Origin: an uncultured Endomicrobiia bacterium
Lineage (GTDB): Bacteria > Elusimicrobiota > Endomicrobiia > DTEH01
DNA length: 64,000 bases
NCBI GenBank assembly: GCA_937928765.1
Contig: CALFVX010000003.1
Span: 128,081-192,080, forward strand
Direction: 5' to 3'
Positions 45,178 through 60,904 of the stretch are shown here, in pieces. How positions within the stretch are numbered: position 1 is the stretch's first letter; the number at the start of each line of letters is the position of its first letter. Under the pieces are notes generated by a model, which had not been told where the DNA came from, searched no databases, and saw only the letters and a program-made list of their open reading frames with translations. The translations under genes and the position numbers were made by a program.

Positions 45178-45411
45178 ATGACTACAGCATTAGTATTAGT
45201 AAAGATTTCATCAGGACAAGAGAAACAAGTATTAGAAAAGCTTAAGCTAATAGAAGGTGTAACACATATAACAGCTGTATTTGGCAGATGGGATTTAGTT
45301 TTAGATATTGAAGCAAAAGATTTAGCAGAATTAAGTTGGCTTGTAATATCTAAAATAAGAAAAATTAAAGGTATAGAAAATACTGAAACATTAATCACAA
45401 CCTCTATTTAA
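45178..45411 (+). CDS. stand-alone Lrp/AsnC-type ligand-binding (RAM) domain protein
   Basis: 77 aa. ALVLVKISSGQEKQVLEKLKLIEGVTHITAVFGRWDLVLDIEAKDLAEL...KIRKIKGIENTETLI fits the RAM fold. No HTH. RBS GGGGGTG. Confidence 0.65.
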   Translation: MTTALVLVKISSGQEKQVLEKLKLIEGVTHITAVFGRWDLVLDIEAKDLAELSWLVISKIRKIKGIENTETLITTSI

Positions 45412-45494: not shown

Positions 45495-48400
45495 ATGTCA
45501 AAATTTTATCTGAAGATTAGTTTAGTATTTTTTATTATATTTTTTTTGGTAGTTTTATTATTTTCAGACCCACCAGATCCTATAACCGACCTTAAAGTTA
45601 TTCAAAGTGGTTTTAAATATGTAAATCTTCAATGGACAGTACCAAATTCTACACAACCAATACAGTATTATGAAATAAAATTTGCTACATATCAAATTAC
45701 TGAATCAAATTGGAATGATGTTGGAAATAAACTAGAAATTTTTTCTACACAGCCACCTCCTCTTAAAGGAGATACTACTTCATATATAGTTTATAATTTA
45801 GAAAATTCAAGGTTATATTTTTTTGCAATAAAATCTTCAACTTCAGCTGATAAAAATCCTCTTTCTGAAATAAGTATAAATACTAACGAGTCTTTTGGTT
45901 TCCCATATAACACATCACCTAGCCAATTTAGTTTATCTACACCAACATATGCTGTTGTTATTTCTTCAGAATTTGTAGAACTTGATTGGAACGATGCATA
46001 TGATCCAGATTTAGAATATGGAGATTATTTAGTATATGAAGTTGGACTATCAACTTTTTCCTTAAATTTGTTTTCTTCAACACCATCTTTTAATGGGGCT
46101 GTTGTTATATATAGCATTACCACTAGTTATTATCTTTTAAATGCTAAAGAAAAGCTCATGGATAATACAACATATTATTGGCGTGTAAAAACAATAGATT
46201 CTGAAGGAAAAACAAGTTGGTCTTTAGCAAATATTGAAGAAAGTAGATTTGTAATAGATCATACTCCACAAGCTCCAATAAGTTTTTCTCTACAGATGCC
46301 TATAAACAAATCAACAGTTACTACAACATCAGGAATATTTTTTGATTGGGAAGATTCTTACGATTTTGACCCACAAGATACTTTAAAATATCGTGTTTAT
46401 ATTTCCTCTATTTCAGAAACACAAGGATTTACTAATATAGTTTCAAATTTAAGTTTCTCTTCTTATACTTTAAATTCTTATTCATTCGTTGAAAATACAA
46501 CATATTGGTGGTATGTTATGGCTGAAGATAAATCTGAAAATCTAACAAAATCAAGTCAAACTTTTTATTTTATAGTTAATGACATAAAAGATCCGCCAAT
46601 ACAAAATTTATTGATCTCTCCAGGAACTACTATATATCAAACGATAGAACTTGTGTTTACTCTAAATCCGACATTCTATTGGACAGAATCATATGATTAT
46701 GACCCTTATAGTAAAATTTATTATCAATTATATATTTCTTCCTTTTCAGACAACCCTGATGTTCTAAATTCTATACACACATCACAGGCAATATACAATA
46801 CTTATTATTTTTTGACAGATAATTTACAGGATGAGACTACATATTTTTGGAGATTACGAATATGGGATGAAGTATATCAAGAAAGCGTGTTTTCATCCAC
46901 AGTAGCATGGTTTTATACTTGTGTATATTTAAATTCAGCAGAACTTAAATCTCCACCAGAGAACTCTACAACATCATATTTTTATCCAAATTTTGAATGG
47001 GAAACAAAAATTTCAGGATATAAACTTAACCTTTCTTCACAAACATTAATTTATTGGACTGATAATTCTACAAAAACAGTTTCAGGCCTATCTTCTTATA
47101 CAACTTTTTATATTGTCCAAGAAAAATTACAAAATAACGCAACATATTTTTGGCAAGTTATAACTTATAGTAATTCTCAAGAGATTCCTTTAGTTTCAAC
47201 TTCATCTTATGTTTTTAAATTTTTCTTACATAATTCATCACCTACAGAATTTGATCTTTCCACACCGTCATCAACAATAATAGTTTCTACTTATGTAACA
47301 CTTATATGGAATGCTTCTACTGAACCAGATAATGAAGAGATAACTTATAGTATTTTTTATTCAACTGATAATTTCTTAACTTATTTTTCTTCTGTAGGAA
47401 TAAAAACAACAAGTTTTGTTTTAGAAAACCTGCAAGATAACACAACATATTTTTGGTATGTTTCAGCGGTTGATGTTTGGCAACAAAAAACTTTTTCTAA
47501 CTCTACTTTTTATTTTGTTGTAAACCATACTCAACAAGATCCTACAGCATTTAATCTTTTGTTTCCATCTAATAACCAAATATTAATAAACACATATACA
47601 ACATTTTATTGGCAAGAATCTTATGATATGGACCCTTTTGAAAGTGTGATTTATGAACTTAAAATTTCTACTGATATAAATTTTTATTCTTTAATATTTT
47701 CAACACAAACAACTCAAACACAATTTTTTTTACCTAAAGGATATCTTTTAGTAAATTCAACCTATTATTGGATAGTTGTAGCATCTTCTTCACAAAGCGG
47801 ATTTACTATTTGTAATTCTACATTTAATTTTAAAGTAATAAACACACCACCTTTGAAATTAAACTTAATTTCACCAAAAAATTATGAAATTTTAAAATCC
47901 TCACCGATACAGATAATATGGAGTCCTGCAGAAGATCCACAAGAAGATGAGTTTCACTATGAACTATATTACACAACTTCTGTAGAAAATAATATCTGGC
48001 TTTCAACTATTACAGTGATTTTGCCATCCACAGAATATTCATATACAATATTAGACCCTATAGATGATACAACTTATTACTTTTATATTGTTGCAGTAGA
48101 TATTTATAATAATAAAAACTCAATAGGACCATATACTTTTTGGACATCATTTTTAAACCAACCACCAACAAAACCAAACATTTTATCTCCACAACAGTCT
48201 GAAATTGTTTATCTTCCTTATATAATAAAATGGATGGCTTCTTCTGACTTTGACCTTTTTGACGAAGTGAAATATAAAATACAAATTTCTACTGATGAAA
48301 ATTTTAGTTTTTTTACTACAGTTGTTAGTTCTATTCAAGAAACAGAGTTTAAAATTTCAAATTTTTTTCTTGAGCCCAATACTTATTATTTAAAAATAAT

Positions 48401-49646
48401 TGCTTTTGATAATAATAACGAAATATCTTTCTCAAGCACTTCTTTTGTAATAAACAGATATTATATTTCTATTTATTCACCACAAAATGGTGAAATTATA
48501 AAAAATTTACCCTTAGAATTTTATTTTTCTAAAGTTTCAGCAAAATACTATTCTGATAAAGTAGATTATAAGATATTTTATTCCTCATTTTCAAACTTCA
48601 GTTATAAAACAGAAAAATATTTACAAAATAATTATTATTCTATAAACCAACCACCATTATATCCTAATACCTACTATTTTTATGTTGAAGTTTACTATAA
48701 CAACTTTTATGCAGGAGAAAGTTCTATATTTAGTTTTATAATTCCTAATACTCCTCCAGCAGCACCACAAAATGTTTATTTATCAACTTCAAATTACGCA
48801 GTAGAACTTCTGTGGGATAGTGTAAGTGTTGAAAACTTATGGGGATATAAAGTTTATAGTGGATATGATATTTATAACTTAACTCAGGTAGGATTTACTA
48901 CTAATACTTATTATATAGATTATGATGGGTTTAATAAAAATTTATTTTATATGATATCTTGTGTTAACAATTTTGCTGTAGAAAGTATAAATAATATGTA
49001 TGTGAGATTATATTTACAGCAACAATCAGATATTTATATAAGCCAGGATAAGATTTTAATCTTTTCAGTTCCTAAAAAAGAAAATCTTACTAGTTTAAAA
49101 ATTGAAAGATTAAAAGAAGAAGAAAATGAAAATTATATTTATGTTTATCTCATTAAAGCAAATAAAGCAAAGCTTGATAATTTTTCAGAGATATCAGTTT
49201 TAAAACCTCAAAATATAAAAAATTATGTTATACAATACTATGATGGACATAATTGGATAAATTTTCCGTCAGAAGAGGTTTATGGAAGAGTTATAATAAA
49301 AACACAATATTTAGGCAAATATAGATTAGTTTCGGCTATAGAAGAGATATCTCATGGTCTTACAATAATAGGATGTTCGCCAAAGAAACGTATCATAACG
49401 CCCAATAATGATTCAATAAATGATTATATAGAATTTCATTATAAAGTTGGCAGTTTCATAGATGGCAATATTTATAATATATATGCTAGAAAAGTATGTG
49501 CATTAAAAAGAAAAGACAATAATATTTTATATTTTGATGGTAAAGATGACAATAATAAATACTTACCAGCAGGGATTTATATTTATGTTATAGATTCAAA
49601 ATCAGATGGAAAAAATTTTAAAGGGACAATAGTGATAAAATACTAA
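45495..49646 (+). CDS. large secreted cell-surface protein with about nine FN3-like repeats and a type-B T9SS (CHU_C/gliding-motility) C-terminal sorting domain
   Basis: Signal peptide. Repeated motifs W-x-x-S-Y-D-x-D-P and N-T-T-Y-[YF]-W-x-V recur about every 130 aa. C-terminus IITPNNDSINDYIEF...YFDGKDDNNKYLPAGIYIYVIDSKSDGKNFKGTIVIKY matches the TIGR04131/CHU_C pattern. Confidence 0.75.
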   Translation: MSKFYLKISLVFFIIFFLVVLLFSDPPDPITDLKVIQSGFKYVNLQWTVPNSTQPIQYYEIKFATYQITESNWNDVGNKLEIFSTQPPPLKGDTTSYIVYNLENSRLYFFAIKSSTSADKNPLSEISINTNESFGFPYNTSPSQFSLSTPTYAVVISSEFVELDWNDAYDPDLEYGDYLVYEVGLSTFSLNLFSSTPSFNGAVVIYSITTSYYLLNAKEKLMDNTTYYWRVKTIDSEGKTSWSLANIEESRFVIDHTPQAPISFSLQMPINKSTVTTTSGIFFDWEDSYDFDPQDTLKYRVYISSISETQGFTNIVSNLSFSSYTLNSYSFVENTTYWWYVMAEDKSENLTKSSQTFYFIVNDIKDPPIQNLLISPGTTIYQTIELVFTLNPTFYWTESYDYDPYSKIYYQLYISSFSDNPDVLNSIHTSQAIYNTYYFLTDNLQDETTYFWRLRIWDEVYQESVFSSTVAWFYTCVYLNSAELKSPPENSTTSYFYPNFEWETKISGYKLNLSSQTLIYWTDNSTKTVSGLSSYTTFYIVQEKLQNNATYFWQVITYSNSQEIPLVSTSSYVFKFFLHNSSPTEFDLSTPSSTIIVSTYVTLIWNASTEPDNEEITYSIFYSTDNFLTYFSSVGIKTTSFVLENLQDNTTYFWYVSAVDVWQQKTFSNSTFYFVVNHTQQDPTAFNLLFPSNNQILINTYTTFYWQESYDMDPFESVIYELKISTDINFYSLIFSTQTTQTQFFLPKGYLLVNSTYYWIVVASSSQSGFTICNSTFNFKVINTPPLKLNLISPKNYEILKSSPIQIIWSPAEDPQEDEFHYELYYTTSVENNIWLSTITVILPSTEYSYTILDPIDDTTYYFYIVAVDIYNNKNSIGPYTFWTSFLNQPPTKPNILSPQQSEIVYLPYIIKWMASSDFDLFDEVKYKIQISTDENFSFFTTVVSSIQETEFKISNFFLEPNTYYLKIIAFDNNNEISFSSTSFVINRYYISIYSPQNGEIIKNLPLEFYFSKVSAKYYSDKVDYKIFYSSFSNFSYKTEKYLQNNYYSINQPPLYPNTYYFYVEVYYNNFYAGESSIFSFIIPNTPPAAPQNVYLSTSNYAVELLWDSVSVENLWGYKVYSGYDIYNLTQVGFTTNTYYIDYDGFNKNLFYMISCVNNFAVESINNMYVRLYLQQQSDIYISQDKILIFSVPKKENLTSLKIERLKEEENENYIYVYLIKANKAKLDNFSEISVLKPQNIKNYVIQYYDGHNWINFPSEEVYGRVIIKTQYLGKYRLVSAIEEISHGLTIIGCSPKKRIITPNNDSINDYIEFHYKVGSFIDGNIYNIYARKVCALKRKDNNILYFDGKDDNNKYLPAGIYIYVIDSKSDGKNFKGTIVIKY

Positions 49647-51040
49647 TGATTAAAAAAATTTTTATAATATTTTGTGTTATAATTTTAAAAACAAGCATAA
49701 TTTTTGGGATTTATGTTTCAGAATATTCGTTTGTAGGTTATCCTCAGGAAAGTAGTGTTGTTTTTTTAAATCCAGCGACAGCAGGAAACTTAGTCAATAT
49801 TAATTTAGATATGAGTTATGGTATGATTTTTAAAGGTTTAATTGAAGAAAATTTGTACAATACAGAGTTTTCTTTAAGCTATAATATAAAAAATAATTTT
49901 TTTGGTAGCTTAGGATTTAGAGAACTTGTCTTGCAAGATATTTTTTCTGAAAATTTGTTGCTAGGAAGTTTTGGGATTAAATTACTTAATGAAAAAATTT
50001 TTGTTGCTTTTAGTTTTAAATATTATATTTTTAAATATTTTTATGATGAATATTATTTAGAAGATGTTTTAGCGGAAAATAATTTAGTAGTTAATAATAT
50101 AGATTTTGGATTTTTATGGAAAATTAAAGAAGATATTTTTTTCTCTTTCGGTGTGCTGAACTTAATTAATAATTCTTTAGGTAAAGATATAAAATATTCT
50201 CTACCGCAAAACTATGTTTTAGGTTTAGGATATAGATATTATACAACAATATTTAATTTTGAATATCATATTGTAAAAAATATTATAGATCAAAAAATTT
50301 TAAATGATAATAATTTAAAAATATGTCTAAAACAAGAAATGTTTTATACAAACAAGATATCGATGTATTTAGTTTTTGAAGTAAACAAACAACAAAATTT
50401 TGACAGTTTTGTTTTAGCTGCAGAATTAAGATTTTTACAAAATAATTTAGGATTAAGATACTTTTGTGTATATCCTTTAAGTCTTGTTTCACAAAAAGAG
50501 TTTTTTGGTAATCATTATATAAATTTTAATATAAGTTTAGCTAAAAAATCTATAAGAGAACATAGATTAGAAAAAGAAAAAGTTAATATTTTAGAAAAGC
50601 CAATAGTTAAAAAAGATGAAGAAATTGTTGTTGTAGAACCCAAAAAGGAAGTTTATTTTGATAGTGAACTACAAAAAATAGAAGTGTCTGTTGATAATAA
50701 GACAGAAATTTTTGAAGAAAAACAAAAAAAAGAAGAAGTTAAAAAGAAAGATTTAGAATTAGAAGAAAATATACAGGTTATTAAACCAGAGGTTAAAATT
50801 GCAACAAAAACAGTACATATAGAAGTTATTAAAAAAGAGCAACAACTATACAAACAACAAAAAGAAAGATATAAGTTTCCTTTAGCTCATAAAGTTTCAA
50901 AGGGTGAAACCTTGATTTCTATATCAAAAAAGTATTATAATAATGAAAAAGGGTGGAAAAAAATTTACGAAACAAATAAAGAGAAAATTATCAAAGGGGT
51001 TCCTATAGTTGGAGAAATATTGATTATACCAGAACCATAG
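49646..51040 (+). CDS. PorP/SprF-like membrane protein fused to a C-terminal LysM peptidoglycan-binding domain
   Basis: N-terminal signal/TM then FLNPATAGN (PorP/SprF NPAxAG motif) and a beta-strand-rich segment of about 300 aa, a K/E-rich linker, and the C-terminal LysM (HKVSKGETLISISKKYYNNEKGWKKIYETNKEKI...GEILIIP). The start overlaps the preceding stop (TAATG). Confidence 0.55.
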   Translation: MIKKIFIIFCVIILKTSIIFGIYVSEYSFVGYPQESSVVFLNPATAGNLVNINLDMSYGMIFKGLIEENLYNTEFSLSYNIKNNFFGSLGFRELVLQDIFSENLLLGSFGIKLLNEKIFVAFSFKYYIFKYFYDEYYLEDVLAENNLVVNNIDFGFLWKIKEDIFFSFGVLNLINNSLGKDIKYSLPQNYVLGLGYRYYTTIFNFEYHIVKNIIDQKILNDNNLKICLKQEMFYTNKISMYLVFEVNKQQNFDSFVLAAELRFLQNNLGLRYFCVYPLSLVSQKEFFGNHYINFNISLAKKSIREHRLEKEKVNILEKPIVKKDEEIVVVEPKKEVYFDSELQKIEVSVDNKTEIFEEKQKKEEVKKKDLELEENIQVIKPEVKIATKTVHIEVIKKEQQLYKQQKERYKFPLAHKVSKGETLISISKKYYNNEKGWKKIYETNKEKIIKGVPIVGEILIIPEP

Positions 51041-51247: not shown

Positions 51248-52204
51248 ATGTTTGATGATGAAGAAAAATTTTATACTTGGGATGAAATAGAAAAAGAACT
51301 TTCAGAACTTGAACTTCAGTATGGTGATAAGGATGATGTGATGCAAAGTCTTATTACACCGTCTGTATCAGCATACTGGAGAAGAAAACTTGAAGAAGAA
51401 AAAATTCTGTACGAAAAGATATTGCAAACAAAAGAAGAAGAAAAAAAACAAATAATTTTAAAATTACAACAGCAAGAACAGATAATAGAAGAACTAAAAA
51501 AACAGATTGAAAAAATAGAGCGTGGCGAATATGAAAAACTTAAGGATAAGTTTGAAGAATTGCGCAGCAAAGAGTTAGAACTTGAAAAAGAGAAAGAAAA
51601 ATTGGTTTGGCAACAACAGATACAAGGACTAGAATATGATAAAAAGATTATTGAAAAAGAAGTTGAACGTGCAAAACAAGAATTTGAACAACAAAAACAA
51701 GAACTTCTTGTATATTATAATAGACAATTTAATTCTTTACTTGAAGTACAAAATCAACTTTTAGAAGAGACAAGTAGGCTTGAACAAGAATTAGACAAAG
51801 TTCTTTTTACAGCAAAAAAAGAAGTTGAAAAATTTGGTTCAGAAAAAGATTTGATATTAAAAGAATTAGAAGATTTAAAAGTTGTAGTTGATAATTTAAA
51901 AAGAGAGAAAGAAATTTTGATAAATGAAAAAAATTTGTTGTTAAGAAATATTGAAGATATTAAAAAACAGAATATTGTAGATAAGAAAAAGATTGTATCA
52001 GATATTTCTTATAACATAAAGAATTATATTAACGAAATTAGAAGTTTATGTGGTTTAATTATTGGGGCAATAAATTTTGTGTCTAGACATCATAAATATA
52101 AAAATTCAGTAAAATTTCATTATGAACTAATACTTAATTCTATCCAACGAATATTAAGTATTCTAGATGAGATTGCAAAGTTTGTTGTAGAATACCAGGT
52201 TTAA
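51248..52204 (+). CDS. coiled-coil protein with a possible DHp-like C-terminal helix pair
   Basis: 318 aa. E/K/Q-rich heptad repeats throughout. The C-terminal NEIRSLCGLIIGAINFVSRHHKYKNSVKFHYELILNSIQRIL is weakly HisKA-like; no ATPase domain. Confidence 0.45.
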   Translation: MFDDEEKFYTWDEIEKELSELELQYGDKDDVMQSLITPSVSAYWRRKLEEEKILYEKILQTKEEEKKQIILKLQQQEQIIEELKKQIEKIERGEYEKLKDKFEELRSKELELEKEKEKLVWQQQIQGLEYDKKIIEKEVERAKQEFEQQKQELLVYYNRQFNSLLEVQNQLLEETSRLEQELDKVLFTAKKEVEKFGSEKDLILKELEDLKVVVDNLKREKEILINEKNLLLRNIEDIKKQNIVDKKKIVSDISYNIKNYINEIRSLCGLIIGAINFVSRHHKYKNSVKFHYELILNSIQRILSILDEIAKFVVEYQV

Positions 52205-52208
52205 TTTT

Positions 52209-53375
52209 ATGCAGAAAATATTGATAATCAGTTTCAAAGAAGAACCACAATCTTTCCTGCCACAAAAATTTATCTCAGAATTTCAAATAAAAATTGTCCA
52301 TGAAAATTATTCTTTTAAACAGTTGATTGAAGAAATTATAAAATTTAAACCGCAGTTGATAATTGTAAATGAATTTATTCCTATAAAATCTTTAGAAAAA
52401 ATTTGTAAAATATATAATTTTATACCTATATGTTGTATAGGGAAAATTGAGGAAGAAAATAAGTTAGAAAAATTTTTAGAATTAGGTATTACTTTGATTA
52501 AGATTCCAAAAAGTGAAGATGAAATTGTTTCAACAATAAAAAATGTTTTATGGTTTTCTTTAGCTAAAGAAGAATTGTGGTCTAAAGAGTACGAATTGGC
52601 AAGATATGAAAAAAAGAAAGATAAAATTTTTTCAATTTTAAAATATTCTTCTATTTTTTTTGTTTTAATTTTTTTATTTTTTATATCATCAAAAGTATAT
52701 AATTATGTTTTAAAACCTAAAGAATTGTTTAATCTTGTAGAATTCAAATATATTAAACCATCAGATATAACTATTGTTGGAGATAAGTATATAATAAATG
52801 ATTGGACAGTAAGAAATTTTTTTGAATATTTACAAAACAATGACAATATGGTAGGAATGTTAATTGCAGAAAAACAATTTAATAATATTGCTTTTGATAG
52901 CAGAAATCAAGTTCTGTTTGCTTCCTCTGCTTTTGATGATAAAGTTTATCTTTATAAATATCCAGATTTAAGTATTATAGTTTCTTCTTTTACAATAAGT
53001 AATGGTGTAATTTTGTCATTATATGTAGATAATGATATGAATTTATATATTTTAAATAACGAAAAAATTTTATTTGAATTCAAAATTAATGATTTAAACA
53101 AATTAGTTTTTATCTCTTCTTTTACTATACCAAATTTTTTTCCTATAGATATAAATATTTTTGAAGACAAATTTTATTTTCTTGATAACAATAACAATAT
53201 CTGGGTGATGAAAAAAAATGATAATGAGTTTGAAATAGAGAAAGTTATTGTTTTATCATTATATTTCGCAGGTGAAGTTCAACAGTTCAATTCGTTTGCA
53301 ATAGGAGAAAAATTTTTTTATTTGTTAAGTGAAAAAGAAAATAAATTATACAAATTACCAAAAGAAATCTTATAA
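52209..53375 (+). CDS. membrane protein with an N-terminal pseudo-receiver (CheY-like fold, Asp replaced), one TM helix and a C-terminal beta-propeller-like repeat region
   Basis: KILIISFKEE...PQLIIVNEF...IPICCIGK...LGITLIKIPKSEDEIV parallels the CheY beta-alpha pattern with N in place of the phospho-Asp. TM at ILKYSSIFFVLIFLFFISS. Four repeats follow of the type hydrophobic-D-x-x-x-x-hydrophobic-Y-hydrophobic-L. Confidence 0.4.
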   Translation: MQKILIISFKEEPQSFLPQKFISEFQIKIVHENYSFKQLIEEIIKFKPQLIIVNEFIPIKSLEKICKIYNFIPICCIGKIEEENKLEKFLELGITLIKIPKSEDEIVSTIKNVLWFSLAKEELWSKEYELARYEKKKDKIFSILKYSSIFFVLIFLFFISSKVYNYVLKPKELFNLVEFKYIKPSDITIVGDKYIINDWTVRNFFEYLQNNDNMVGMLIAEKQFNNIAFDSRNQVLFASSAFDDKVYLYKYPDLSIIVSSFTISNGVILSLYVDNDMNLYILNNEKILFEFKINDLNKLVFISSFTIPNFFPIDINIFEDKFYFLDNNNNIWVMKKNDNEFEIEKVIVLSLYFAGEVQQFNSFAIGEKFFYLLSEKENKLYKLPKEIL

Positions 53376-58896: not shown

Positions 58897-59955
58897 ATGG
58901 AGATGATAAATATACTAACCACAGCTGTACAACATGGTGCTTCTGATATACACATTGTTATTGGTAAACCTCCGATGGCGAGAATAAGAGGTGAAGTTGA
59001 AGAATTAGATTTTCCAGCAATTACAGCAGAAGAAAGCAAAAAGTTGATTTATTCTGTTTTATATGATGAACAAAAAAAACGCTTTGAAGAAGAACATGAA
59101 CTTGATTGTTCTATTCAGATAACAAAAGTTGCACGGTTTAGAGTTAATGTTTTGCTACATAAATATGGAGTAGAGGCCGTATTGCGGGTAATTCCGTCTG
59201 TTATACCCACGCCTGAAGAAATAGGTTTAACTAACGAAATTGTGAAACTTACAGATTTACCTCGAGGATTAGTTTTAGTTACAGGAGCTACAGGGTCTGG
59301 TAAATCTACTACATTAGCTTGTTTAATTGAGTTAATAAATCAAAAATATAAAAAACATATCTTAACTATTGAAGATCCTATAGAATTTATTTATGAAAAT
59401 AAAAGATCTATTATAAGACAAAGAGAAATAGGTGTACATACAAAAACTTTTCACACTGCATTAAAATATGCTTTAAGACAAGATCCGGATGTAATTTTGG
59501 TAGGCGAGATGCGCGATTTAGAGACAATTTCAGCAGCATTAACTGTTGCAGAAACAGGACATTTAGTTTTTGCGACATTGCATACTCAAGATGCAGCACA
59601 GACAATTGATCGCATAATAGATGTTTTTCCATCCCATCAGCAACAACAAGTACGAATTCAGTTAGCATCTACACTTAAAGCAGTAATTTCTCAAGTTTTA
59701 CTACCAAAAAAATCTTTCCCAGGAAGAGTTGCTATAAGAGAGATAATGATTGTAACAGCTGCGATTTCAAATCTTATTCGTGAAGGGAAAACACACCAGA
59801 TTTATACTGCAATAGAAACAGGTGGAAAGTTTGGTATGATAAGTTTAGATAAAGCTTTAGTAGATGCTGTAAAAAAGGGTTTAATAACGCAGGAAGATGC
59901 TATTTCTAAAGCACAAAATCCTGAAAATGTTCGTAATCTATTAAATTATTTATAA
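58897..59955 (+). CDS. pilT: type IV pilus retraction ATPase PilT
   Basis: ASDIHI...LVTGATGSGKSTTLA Walker A, the DPIEF Asp box, GEMRD and His box (ATLHT). Confidence 0.9.
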   Translation: MEMINILTTAVQHGASDIHIVIGKPPMARIRGEVEELDFPAITAEESKKLIYSVLYDEQKKRFEEEHELDCSIQITKVARFRVNVLLHKYGVEAVLRVIPSVIPTPEEIGLTNEIVKLTDLPRGLVLVTGATGSGKSTTLACLIELINQKYKKHILTIEDPIEFIYENKRSIIRQREIGVHTKTFHTALKYALRQDPDVILVGEMRDLETISAALTVAETGHLVFATLHTQDAAQTIDRIIDVFPSHQQQQVRIQLASTLKAVISQVLLPKKSFPGRVAIREIMIVTAAISNLIREGKTHQIYTAIETGGKFGMISLDKALVDAVKKGLITQEDAISKAQNPENVRNLLNYL

Positions 59956-59968
59956 AAGAGGAGAACTT

Positions 59969-60904
59969 ATGGATAAAATTTTATTTTTAAAAAATCTATC
60001 AGTTTTTTATAATGTTTCTGATGAAACAATACACAGAATAAGCTTATCTTTGGAAGAAAAATTTTTTTCTGATAAAGAAATTATTTTTTACGAAGGCTCT
60101 TTAGCTAAAAGTATTTTTATAATTTTTTCAGGACAAGTAGAAATTATAAAAAATTATCAAAAACAAAATCAAAAACTTTTAAGAATACTAAATTCAAAAG
60201 AGATATTTGGTGAGATAGGATTATATTCTAAATTTTTTAGGTCAGCAACAGCTATTGCAAAAGGTAAATGTGTGATTTTTGAAATAAAGTCAGATGTTTT
60301 GATAAAAATATGTGATGATTTGCCTAAGGACGGAATTGAAATTTTTAAAGTTTTGTTGCTAAATACTATGAACAGAATGGAACAAACTTCAAGAGAATTA
60401 GCGTCAATATATTCAGTTTCTCAGATTATGCTAGAAGCGTTCAAAAATATCTCAGAGCTACAGAAATTTTTAAAAAATATAGGAAATGAGATTGCAAATG
60501 TATTAGACTATGATTTTGGAATTTACTTATATAACAAATTTAATGAAGAATATAGACTTGTATTTTGTAATAATACTAACTTATCTTTTTGGCAGACAAA
60601 CAATGTTTTGGATAAAAATAATATTTTGTTTAATATAACAGAAGATATAATAAAAAAAGATTTAAAAGAGGAGTTTATAGAAAATAAAAAAATTTATATT
60701 TTTCCACTGATAGATGGGAAAAACATTCTTGGTTTGATTATGTTATTAGTTTTTGATAATAAACAGTCATTAGACCAAGAATATAAAGATTTGTTGATGT
60801 CAATTGCTAATTTGGTTTCTGTTTCCATCTCAGGATTGATGTTTTTGCAAGAAGAAAAAGAAAAGATAAAATTACAAAATATTAAAACAAAATATAATTT
60901 TTAA
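59969..60904 (+). CDS. cyclic-nucleotide-binding domain protein with a C-terminal GAF-like domain
   Basis: cNMP-binding fold (FSDKEIIFYEGSLAKSIFIIFSGQVEI...FGEIGL). No HTH. Confidence 0.6.
   Translation: MDKILFLKNLSVFYNVSDETIHRISLSLEEKFFSDKEIIFYEGSLAKSIFIIFSGQVEIIKNYQKQNQKLLRILNSKEIFGEIGLYSKFFRSATAIAKGKCVIFEIKSDVLIKICDDLPKDGIEIFKVLLLNTMNRMEQTSRELASIYSVSQIMLEAFKNISELQKFLKNIGNEIANVLDYDFGIYLYNKFNEEYRLVFCNNTNLSFWQTNNVLDKNNILFNITEDIIKKDLKEEFIENKKIYIFPLIDGKNILGLIMLLVFDNKQSLDQEYKDLLMSIANLVSVSISGLMFLQEEKEKIKLQNIKTKYNF

Follow-up and report, generated by a model that had tools for sequence, protein, structure and literature searches.

A Diverged Type IX Secretion-Like Cargo and Barrel Gene Pair with a Putative Cell-Wall Anchor in Endomicrobiia

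Introduction

Can the parts that sort and hold cargo in type IX secretion (T9SS) be found in the genome of a bacterium from another phylum? T9SS is confined by reviews to Bacteroidota/FCB (PMC10994853, PMC11205867), and little is understood as yet of how PorP-like barrels receive and hold type B cargo. Two overlapping genes in the 64-kb stretch of DNA analyzed here, which we call the window, raise this question. ORF1 (45495–49646, plus strand; 1383 aa) encodes a giant putative surface protein that is the predicted cargo, and ORF2 (49646–51040, plus strand; 464 aa) encodes a predicted outer-membrane barrel protein. A preliminary description of this DNA had placed both genes at these coordinates, correctly, and had noted the TAATG stop/start overlap that joins them (49644–49648, plus strand), which can be read directly from the sequence: in AAA TAC TAA TGA TTA AAA, the last A of the ORF1 stop codon TAA (49644–49646) is the first base of the ORF2 ATG. 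It took the pair for a type B cargo gene coupled to a PorP/SprF-like gene. We conclude that the module is a real, diverged T9SS-like surface-anchoring module and a variant of a known cargo/anchor type, and we estimate a probability of roughly 0.7 that it serves surface display and is homologous to the type B branch of T9SS.

The Predicted Cargo Ends in a Type-B-Like Domain

ORF1 appears to begin with a Sec-type signal peptide, a call that rests on the protein itself and on orthologs, in which the N-terminal hydrophobic segment is kept, rather than on a dedicated predictor. There follow roughly 10–12 Ig/fn3-like repeats of ~105 aa each, which are rich in S, Y, T, and N and each end in a TYYW-type motif, then a conserved region and, finally, the C-terminal domain (CTD). 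Pfam matches are to fn3, Ig_Rha78A_N, and CHU_C. Orthologs are 45–53% identical, and homologs at locus L013 are matched at E 1e-72.

The candidate sorting/anchoring domain spans aa 1292–1383 (49368–49643, plus strand) and ends in GTIVIKY at the extreme C-terminus. Residues 1300–1381 match Pfam CHU_C (PF13585) over profile positions 6–86 of 86 with 31.1 bits (E 2.7e-7), above the gathering cut-off of 27 bits. This match is not due to chance, because the same tail scores 21.6–27.3 bits in all five partner proteins scanned from other loci. When the tail alone is compared with NCBIfam, the best match is TIGR04131, the T9SS type B sorting domain (27.3 bits, E 3e-6), under the NCBI curated cut-off of 35 bits; full-length ORF1 has no TIGR04131 match in NCBIfam. 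Thus, the assignment to type B made in the preliminary description stands with respect to CHU_C and falls short with respect to TIGR04131. TIGR04131 is nonetheless the sole T9SS sorting-domain model matched by the ORF1 tail, and it is the best NCBIfam match for four related tails as well. The three related tails that match both models score 26.9–34.2 bits for type B versus ~19.5 bits for type A, and their type B score also exceeds that for FlgD. A related Elusimicrobiota protein, from locus L012, passes TIGR04131 outright (36.4 bits).

Our own CTD HMM, which gives 125.9 bits on the ORF1 tail, places the end of the CTD at the last residue of the protein in 13 of 13 loci. The number of CTD relatives recovered is 305; among the 120 that were listed, nearly all have a precomputed PF13585 match, and those bearing names come from Elusimicrobiota. 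Taken together, the sequence comparisons support the presence of a type-B-like CTD in ORF1.

The Partner Is a Predicted FadL-Fold Barrel Fused to LysM

ORF2 is predicted to start with a signal peptide and an N-terminal hatch, followed by a 14-stranded outer-membrane barrel of the FadL/PorV fold that extends to about aa 304; some 100 aa of K/E-rich linker then lead to a LysM domain. An NPA motif is also present in the N-terminal hatch of FadL. In ORF2, the NPAxxG segment reads NPATAG (aa 42–47; 49769–49786, plus strand) and lies in the predicted hatch before the first strand. This motif had already been picked out as NPAxAG; P43 and G47 do not vary among 15 orthologs, and the consensus of a wider set of 108 relatives retains NPAG.

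The proposed kinship of ORF2 with PorP/SprF is borne out only at the level of the superfamily. Searches of Pfam and NCBIfam with ORF2 give no PorP_SprF, PorV, or PorQ match (none for PF11751 or TIGR03519 at E <= 1), so that, unlike PorP/SprF barrels, ORF2 is too diverged to be recognized by these models, and two of its 15 orthologs match PorP/SprF weakly (best E 0.003). There is also no direct sequence match to PF03349 (Toluene_X, FadL/TodX), although the match of the predicted fold to the FadL type is strong. A search of 1.84 billion representatives with the family profile recovers 362 relatives (E <= 1e-3). When 108 relatives were scanned, 100 matched PorV_fam (E < 0.01), 52 T9SS_PorP_fam, 36 Pfam PorP_SprF, and 18 PF03349; one relative is labelled "PorP/SprF" in its NCBI record. 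A profile built from the relatives matches the solved PorV at E 3.5e-10; the A2 family profile has no match among PDB sequences. PorV/PorQ models give the relatives higher scores than PorP/SprF models do, and none of the relatives reach the NCBIfam curated cut-offs: scores are 52–78 bits for PorV_fam (NF033709), under whose cut-off of 90 ORF2 itself also falls, and 31–40 bits for the PorP family (cut-off 90.55), the latter from P0021 (40.3) and P0030 (31.1), both of which have precomputed Pfam PorP_SprF matches. The family profile and the predicted fold thus support, by a transitive link, membership of ORF2 in the PorV/PorQ/PorP (FadL-fold) superfamily.

The putative C-terminal LysM domain (PF01476; aa 409–464; 50870–51037, plus strand), predicted to be periplasmic, had been missed in the preliminary description, which recognized the part containing NPATAG. 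In ORF2 it scores 18.0 bits against a Pfam gathering cut-off of 20.9, and the AF2 model of the tail is of low confidence. LysM is, however, matched in 15 of 15 orthologs (best E 1.7e-5) and with 25.8 bits in the relative P0016, and mean pairwise identity among orthologs is 89% in LysM versus 41% in the barrel. LysM also occurs in 54 of the 108 scanned relatives, and OmpA in four. Because of its putative C-terminal LysM domain, we regard ORF2 as a barrel fused to a putative peptidoglycan anchor.

A Vertically Inherited Four-Gene Unit in Elusimicrobiota

The suspicion that this genome lies outside Bacteroidota proved well founded. The host belongs to Endomicrobiia (Elusimicrobiota): named homologs come from Endomicrobiia/Elusimicrobiota MAGs, and every large window ORF that was scanned is a housekeeping gene. 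The further suggestion that the module may have been imported is not supported, and we rejected a recent horizontal transfer because synteny is conserved and composition is host-like. In the Endomicrobiia loci inspected, the pheST/glyA synteny is kept and the pair precedes glyA; pairs of this type recur in other Elusimicrobiota; and the GC content of ORF1 and ORF2 matches that of the rest of the window. The pair is inherited vertically in Elusimicrobiota. The genome-contig search relied on one stringent peptide pattern and yielded only four Endomicrobiia loci, and it is therefore not a phylum-wide census. Looking up window genes to extend the view of the genome gave short Logan contigs or no match, and promoter and terminator scans were uninformative at 26% GC.

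In 13 of 13 loci, across barrel identities of 23–100%, the barrel gene is directly preceded by a CTD-bearing gene. Stop/start overlaps of 1 or 4 bases, equivalent to TAATG, are also present in L004, L010, L011, and L013, and in L013 the pair has been duplicated together, in tandem. The FadL fold is also common to lipid/hydrocarbon channels and to Bacteroidota BAM-associated barrels, which counts against the surface-display reading, as do the barrel and CTD scores below the NCBIfam cut-offs, the lack of T9SS translocon or motor genes among the annotated window ORFs, and the TXSScan result given below. One could also read ORF2 as mainly a tether between outer membrane and peptidoglycan or as an uptake channel of the FadL kind, the adjacency of ORF1 as envelope co-regulation, and the ORF1 tail as a generic FlgD-Ig/β-sandwich. 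We consider this very unlikely, given that adjacency is retained even where barrel identity has fallen to about 23%, with overlapping starts and stops, that the pairs in L013 were duplicated together, and that the tail in every case closes the protein and favors type B over type A or FlgD in the three related tails matching both. FadL/TodX channels (PF03349), unlike ORF2, have neither a LysM tail nor a cognate CTD-bearing partner gene.

The unit is larger than the two genes originally described, as four genes travel together: ORF1, ORF2, and the genes for a coiled-coil protein and for a protein with pseudo-receiver, transmembrane, and β-propeller parts. ORF3 (51248–52204, plus strand; 318 aa) is a predicted cytoplasmic coiled-coil protein that is 67–69% identical among Endomicrobiia and has only weak coiled-coil matches in Pfam/NCBIfam; in L013 (E 2e-17) and in L011 (E 2e-20), homologs come after the barrel gene. 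We rejected a histidine kinase identity for ORF3: HATPase_c occurs only in an unrelated neighbor in L013 and in none of the ORF3 homologs. ORF4 (52209–53375, plus strand; 388 aa; homolog in L013 at E 3e-20) has no Pfam match and is predicted to be a bitopic inner-membrane protein, with a CheY-like pseudo-receiver (aa 1–118), a long helix with one transmembrane segment (aa 121–168), and a 6-bladed β-propeller (aa 175–388). Its AF2 model has a pLDDT of 84, and its Foldseek matches are generic NHL/WD40/Pizza6 propellers. ORF4 is not a true response regulator, because the position of the phospho-acceptor Asp is not conserved in the alignment and is occupied by N in ORF4.

Comparison with Known Cargo and Barrel Systems

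The closest parallels are PorP–PorE–PG1035 of Porphyromonas gingivalis and SprF–SprB of Flavobacterium johnsoniae, in the latter of which SprB binds SprF; in both, PorP-like barrels anchor T9SS cargo that carries a type B CTD (PMC9143113). Common to these systems and ours are a large surface protein that ends in a domain of the CHU_C/TIGR04131 type, a cognate FadL-family barrel of 14 strands whose gene directly follows that of the cargo, NPAxxG near the barrel N-terminus, and a peptidoglycan-binding element, putative in ORF2, joined to the barrel. They differ in that our host belongs to Elusimicrobiota and not to FCB, and in that our pair is accompanied by the conserved ORF3 and ORF4. Furthermore, peptidoglycan binding is here predicted to be fused to the barrel (through LysM in ORF2 and OmpA in some relatives) rather than residing in a separate PorE lipoprotein (TPR/β-propeller/OmpA_C); in F. 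johnsoniae, six porP-like genes adjoin porE-like genes (PMC9143113). PorV (PDB 6H3I chain F) lacks a peptidoglycan-binding tail and acts as a shuttle for cargo with a type A CTD, whereas the partner of ORF2 has a type-B-like tail.

Based on these likenesses, we favor a model in which ORF1 would be exported by Sec as an Ig-repeat giant surface protein and its C-terminal β-sandwich would serve as the handle that the cognate ORF2 barrel captures by direct binding and holds at the cell surface. ORF2 would in turn be pinned to the cell wall through its own periplasmic LysM, so that a single polypeptide would do the job of Porphyromonas PorP plus PorE. Translational coupling of the two genes may favor co-production of the partners, and ORF3 and ORF4 may connect the module to the inner membrane.

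How Might the Cargo Cross the Outer Membrane?

Two routes can be envisaged for ORF1. In the first, ORF1 and ORF2 are an ordinary type B cargo/carrier pair served by a complete, divergent T9SS, with an SprA translocon and a GldKLMN-like motor/ring, encoded elsewhere in the genome, such that T9SS extends to Elusimicrobiota. In Bacteroidota, type B cargo still requires SprA (PMC9143113), and both kinds of T9SS sorting parts are found in Elusimicrobiota loci: L012 encodes a type A sorting-domain protein (27.3 > 23 bits) directly upstream of a PorV/PorQ-family barrel (149.6 > 90 bits), and another protein passes the type B cut-off. Nevertheless, no translocon or motor gene was seen among the annotated ORFs of the window, nor any T9SS core gene in the Pfam/NCBIfam gene annotations of related loci, and the restriction of T9SS to Bacteroidota/FCB in reviews also speaks against this route. 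The TXSScan survey of 2016 recorded a T9SS in neither Elusimicrobium minutum nor TG1 Rs-D17 (PMC4793230 Table S3); it scored zero for every system in both genomes, and its sensitivity in this phylum is therefore doubtful. Our literature search on T9SS in Elusimicrobia/Endomicrobia returned no relevant paper, and matches to "PorV2" were text artefacts. We hold this first route to be possible but on balance improbable.

In the second route, the system is self-contained and needs no T9SS: export and anchoring of a single cognate cargo would both fall to the PorP-like barrel, perhaps assisted by BAM and ORF3/ORF4, in a manner analogous to Slam/T11SS or type V secretion. Cargo and barrel pair strictly one to one and are coupled in translation, the module is compact and conserved, even to its tandem duplicate, our CTD HMM finds a single CTD protein within the window, and the phylum has no reported T9SS. 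Like Slam/type XI secretion (TPR plus 14-stranded barrel), the module has a dedicated 14-stranded barrel next to its cargo, and Slam-type TPR domains occur in some ORF2 relatives. However, the Slam barrel belongs to the DUF560 family and its cargo signal is a C-terminal 8-stranded barrel, unlike the situation in ORF2, and the likeness is one of analogy, with no homology shown. To our knowledge, there is no example of a 14-stranded FadL-type barrel that moves a 150-kDa folded multi-Ig protein, which also counts against this route. The homologous Bacteroidota barrels are carriers and anchors, not pores (PMC9143113), and the case depends on the translocon not having been seen in window ORFs and related-locus annotations. 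We hold this second route, like the first, to be possible but on balance improbable. The same guarded standing, well short of our confidence in the surface-display reading itself, applies to the bolder proposal that Elusimicrobiota lack SprA/GldKLMN and that the CTD protein, the LysM barrel, and ORF3/ORF4-type proteins form an autonomous trans-envelope export/anchoring system.

Implications

T9SS has been described as a Bacteroidota/FCB system, and here a related module is part of the core genome of a different phylum. The module is compact, with one cargo, one barrel, a fused putative cell-wall anchor, and vertical inheritance, and its partners are unambiguous; it is therefore a natural minimal system in which to study CTD–barrel recognition. 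The fusion of a predicted peptidoglycan-binding domain to the barrel provides independent support for the PorP–PorE–peptidoglycan bridge proposed in Porphyromonas. If these genomes are without an SprA-type translocon, the module would point to an unrecognized outer-membrane route and would suggest that T9SS sorting parts arose outside Bacteroidota. Should the system be autonomous, the "carrier plus CTD" logic of T9SS would be older than the Bacteroidota translocon and separable from it.

The cargo protein and its sorting domain

ORF1 (45495-49646, + strand; 1383 aa) and ORF2 (49646-51040, + strand; 464 aa) meet at AAA TAC TAA TGA TTA, in which one A is common to the stop codon of ORF1 and the start codon of ORF2, in agreement with the coordinates and the TAATG coupling given in the preliminary description. 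The ORF1 product has a signal-peptide-like N-terminus followed by Ig-like modules, each of ~105 aa, in an array rich in S, Y, T, and N, with fn3 and Ig_Rha78A_N matches in Pfam. Conservation is highest in the tail, which extends to the last residue (...GTIVIKY) and in which orthologs keep the core motifs ITPNNDGxNDY, LYFDGKD, and PGVYIY. Residues 1300-1381 score 31.1 bits (gathering score 27) against CHU_C, described in Pfam as a 'type IX secretion signal domain'. Full-length ORF1 matched no T9SS model in NCBIfam; for the tail alone the best match was the T9SS type B sorting domain TIGR04131 (27.3 bits, E 3e-6). Thus, the proposed type B C-terminal sorting domain (CTD) holds by the CHU_C gathering score, although the TIGR04131 match falls under its 35-bit cut-off. 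The type A model, TIGR04183, reached ~19.5 bits in three related tails, below their type B scores.

GC skew is -0.156 at 46001-48000, inside ORF1, and positive in all other 2-kb bins from 2 kb on. Because GC content is unchanged (~26% across the entire window), this dip is probably an effect of the S/T/Y/N-rich repeat composition rather than a sign of foreign origin. In the window (1-64000), + strand genes make up nearly all of the ORFs of at least 150 aa, and the cumulative skew climbs steadily, as would fit a long segment of leading strand.

Placement of the barrel-LysM protein

The preliminary description called ORF2 PorP/SprF-like. Searched against Pfam and NCBIfam, ORF2 matched no PorP_SprF, PorV, or PorQ model, and its only match was LysM, at 18.0 bits (cut-off 20.9). 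In an alignment of 15 sequences (ORF2 and 14 homologs, 35-75% identical, those named being all from Endomicrobiia), every sequence has P43 and G47 of the NPATAG motif, and weak matches to PorP_SprF and TraF_2 occur in two and three sequences, respectively. In the AlphaFold2 model based on this alignment, a 14-stranded barrel (pLDDT ~80-94) is followed by a K/E-rich linker, which is disordered, and by a LysM tail modeled at low confidence. The FadL-family barrels of PorV and PorP-like proteins have 14 strands (PMC9143113).

Searched against 1.84 billion representatives, a profile restricted to the barrel region gave 362 matches at E <= 1e-3. Among the 108 matches taken for a family scan, NCBIfam models for the PorV/PorQ family, 'PorV2', and the PorP/SprF family were matched by 100, 91, and 52, and Pfam models LysM, TraF_2, PorP_SprF, Toluene_X, and OmpA by 54, 50, 36, 18, and 4. 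A profile built from these relatives matches solved PorV (E 3.5e-10). The named relatives are from Elusimicrobiota, and one of them is recorded at NCBI as 'type IX secretion system membrane protein PorP/SprF'. Checked one by one, relatives score 52-78 bits for PorV_fam and 31-40 bits for the PorP family, under the curated cut-offs of 90 and 90.55. Given these profile matches, sub-cut-off scores, and names, we place ORF2 as a very diverged member of the PorV/PorQ/PorP FadL-fold superfamily, in a distinct Elusimicrobiota clade. The label 'PorP/SprF-like' therefore stands at the level of superfamily and fold, but there is no direct PorP_SprF HMM match and membership in the PorP/SprF family itself is not demonstrable.

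The LysM tail (50870-51037, + strand; ORF2 aa 409-464) is almost frozen while the barrel and linker diverge, with mean pairwise identities of 89%, 41%, and 24%, respectively, among the 15 orthologs. This constraint would seem to exceed the need of peptidoglycan binding alone, and hints at a second conserved partner.

Conservation and inheritance of the module

Gene tables of four Endomicrobiia loci, the window's own contig among them, show one order: pheS, pheT, a gene for a ~1400-aa protein, the barrel-LysM gene, genes for 318-aa and ~385-aa proteins, glyA, and an mraY-like gene. With an in-house HMM of the ORF1 tail, which finds just a single CTD in the 64-kb window, the gene immediately before the barrel gene was seen to encode a CTD protein in 13 of 13 loci (the window, L003-L009 from Endomicrobiia, and L010-L013, whose named members are Elusimicrobiota, both L013 pairs counted), bearing out the pairing first proposed. 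In L013, a distant Elusimicrobiota MAG, all four genes of the module have homologs (BLASTP E 1e-72, 1e-22, 2e-17, and 3e-20); the upstream protein there has a confident CHU_C match, the barrel has a confident Pfam PorP_SprF match, their genes share 4 bases, and another pair of cargo and barrel genes lies downstream. An import of the module had been suggested earlier. The conserved gene order within Endomicrobiia, the pairing, and the homologs of all four genes in L013 show that the four genes are a vertically inherited core module and were not recently imported.

The tandem cargo-barrel-LysM pairs span L013:2866-17019; the first is followed by ORF3 and ORF4 homologs, the second by a coiled-coil protein in which a genuine HATPase_c domain is present. 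In the window, a 77-aa ORF between pheT and ORF1 (45178-45411, + strand), whose sole domain is AsnC-type ligand-binding, is present in L001 and L005 and absent from L003 and L004. At 58897-60904, a T2SSE/PilT-type ATPase gene precedes a cNMP-binding protein gene, with a LytR_cpsA_psr gene upstream, an order kept in some related loci (L002/L003, L005) and not in L004.

ORF3 (51248-52204, + strand) encodes a coiled-coil protein that could be assigned to no family in Pfam or NCBIfam, and at 67-69% identity among Endomicrobiia is the best-conserved gene of the module. ORF4 (52209-53375, + strand), also without a family match, is well modeled (pLDDT 84): a CheY-like domain that lacks conservation at its acceptor position is followed by a long helix containing a single TM segment and by a 6-bladed β-propeller whose structural neighbours are only generic. 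Both have been inherited along with the cargo-barrel pair, out to L013; speculatively, they might act at the inner membrane as a partner of the LysM/barrel protein.

Related systems and the export route

In L012, another Elusimicrobiota MAG, a 924-aa protein scores above the type A CTD cut-off (27.3 > 23) and the barrel directly downstream is a bona fide PorV/PorQ family member (149.6 > 90), the two lying at L012:15894-19683; a type-A-like cargo/barrel pairing therefore also exists in the phylum. The same MAG encodes a 1938-aa protein that clears the cut-off for type B (36.4 > 35) and, downstream of another CTD protein, a fusion of a barrel with OmpA. A CTD profile search recovered 305 proteins. 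Of the 120 listed, nearly all carry a precomputed CHU_C match, and the names given read 'gliding motility-associated C-terminal domain-containing protein [Elusimicrobiota]'. Many are only 120-140 aa and have nothing but a CHU_C-type CTD behind a signal peptide. Such mini-proteins include P0210, P0238, P0255, P0184, and L016:10001-10423, at least one being from Elusimicrobiota; the L016 gene is downstream of one for a 945-aa CHU_C protein, and genes near it gave no PorP/PorV-type Pfam match.

In Bacteroidota, type B CTD proteins are carried off the translocon by carriers that then anchor them at the surface (PMC10994853). PorP binds PG1035 and in turn the peptidoglycan-binding PorE, SprF is the binding partner of SprB, and in F. 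johnsoniae six porP-like genes adjoin porE-like genes (PMC9143113). By analogy, the ORF1-ORF2 module may follow a like logic, except that here the predicted peptidoglycan binder is fused to the barrel. Reviews restrict the T9SS to Bacteroidota/FCB (PMC10994853, PMC11205867), and our literature searches found no paper on a T9SS in Elusimicrobia. TXSScan detected none in Elusimicrobium minutum or the Endomicrobia endosymbiont Rs-D17 (Abby et al. 2016; PMC4793230), its sensitivity in Elusimicrobia being uncertain because every system scored zero in both genomes. The large ORFs scanned in the window were all housekeeping genes. The best description of the module is a putative, diverged T9SS-type-B-like cargo-anchor unit, anchored by LysM and native to Elusimicrobiota, and the main question of interest that it raises is the route by which ORF1 is exported.
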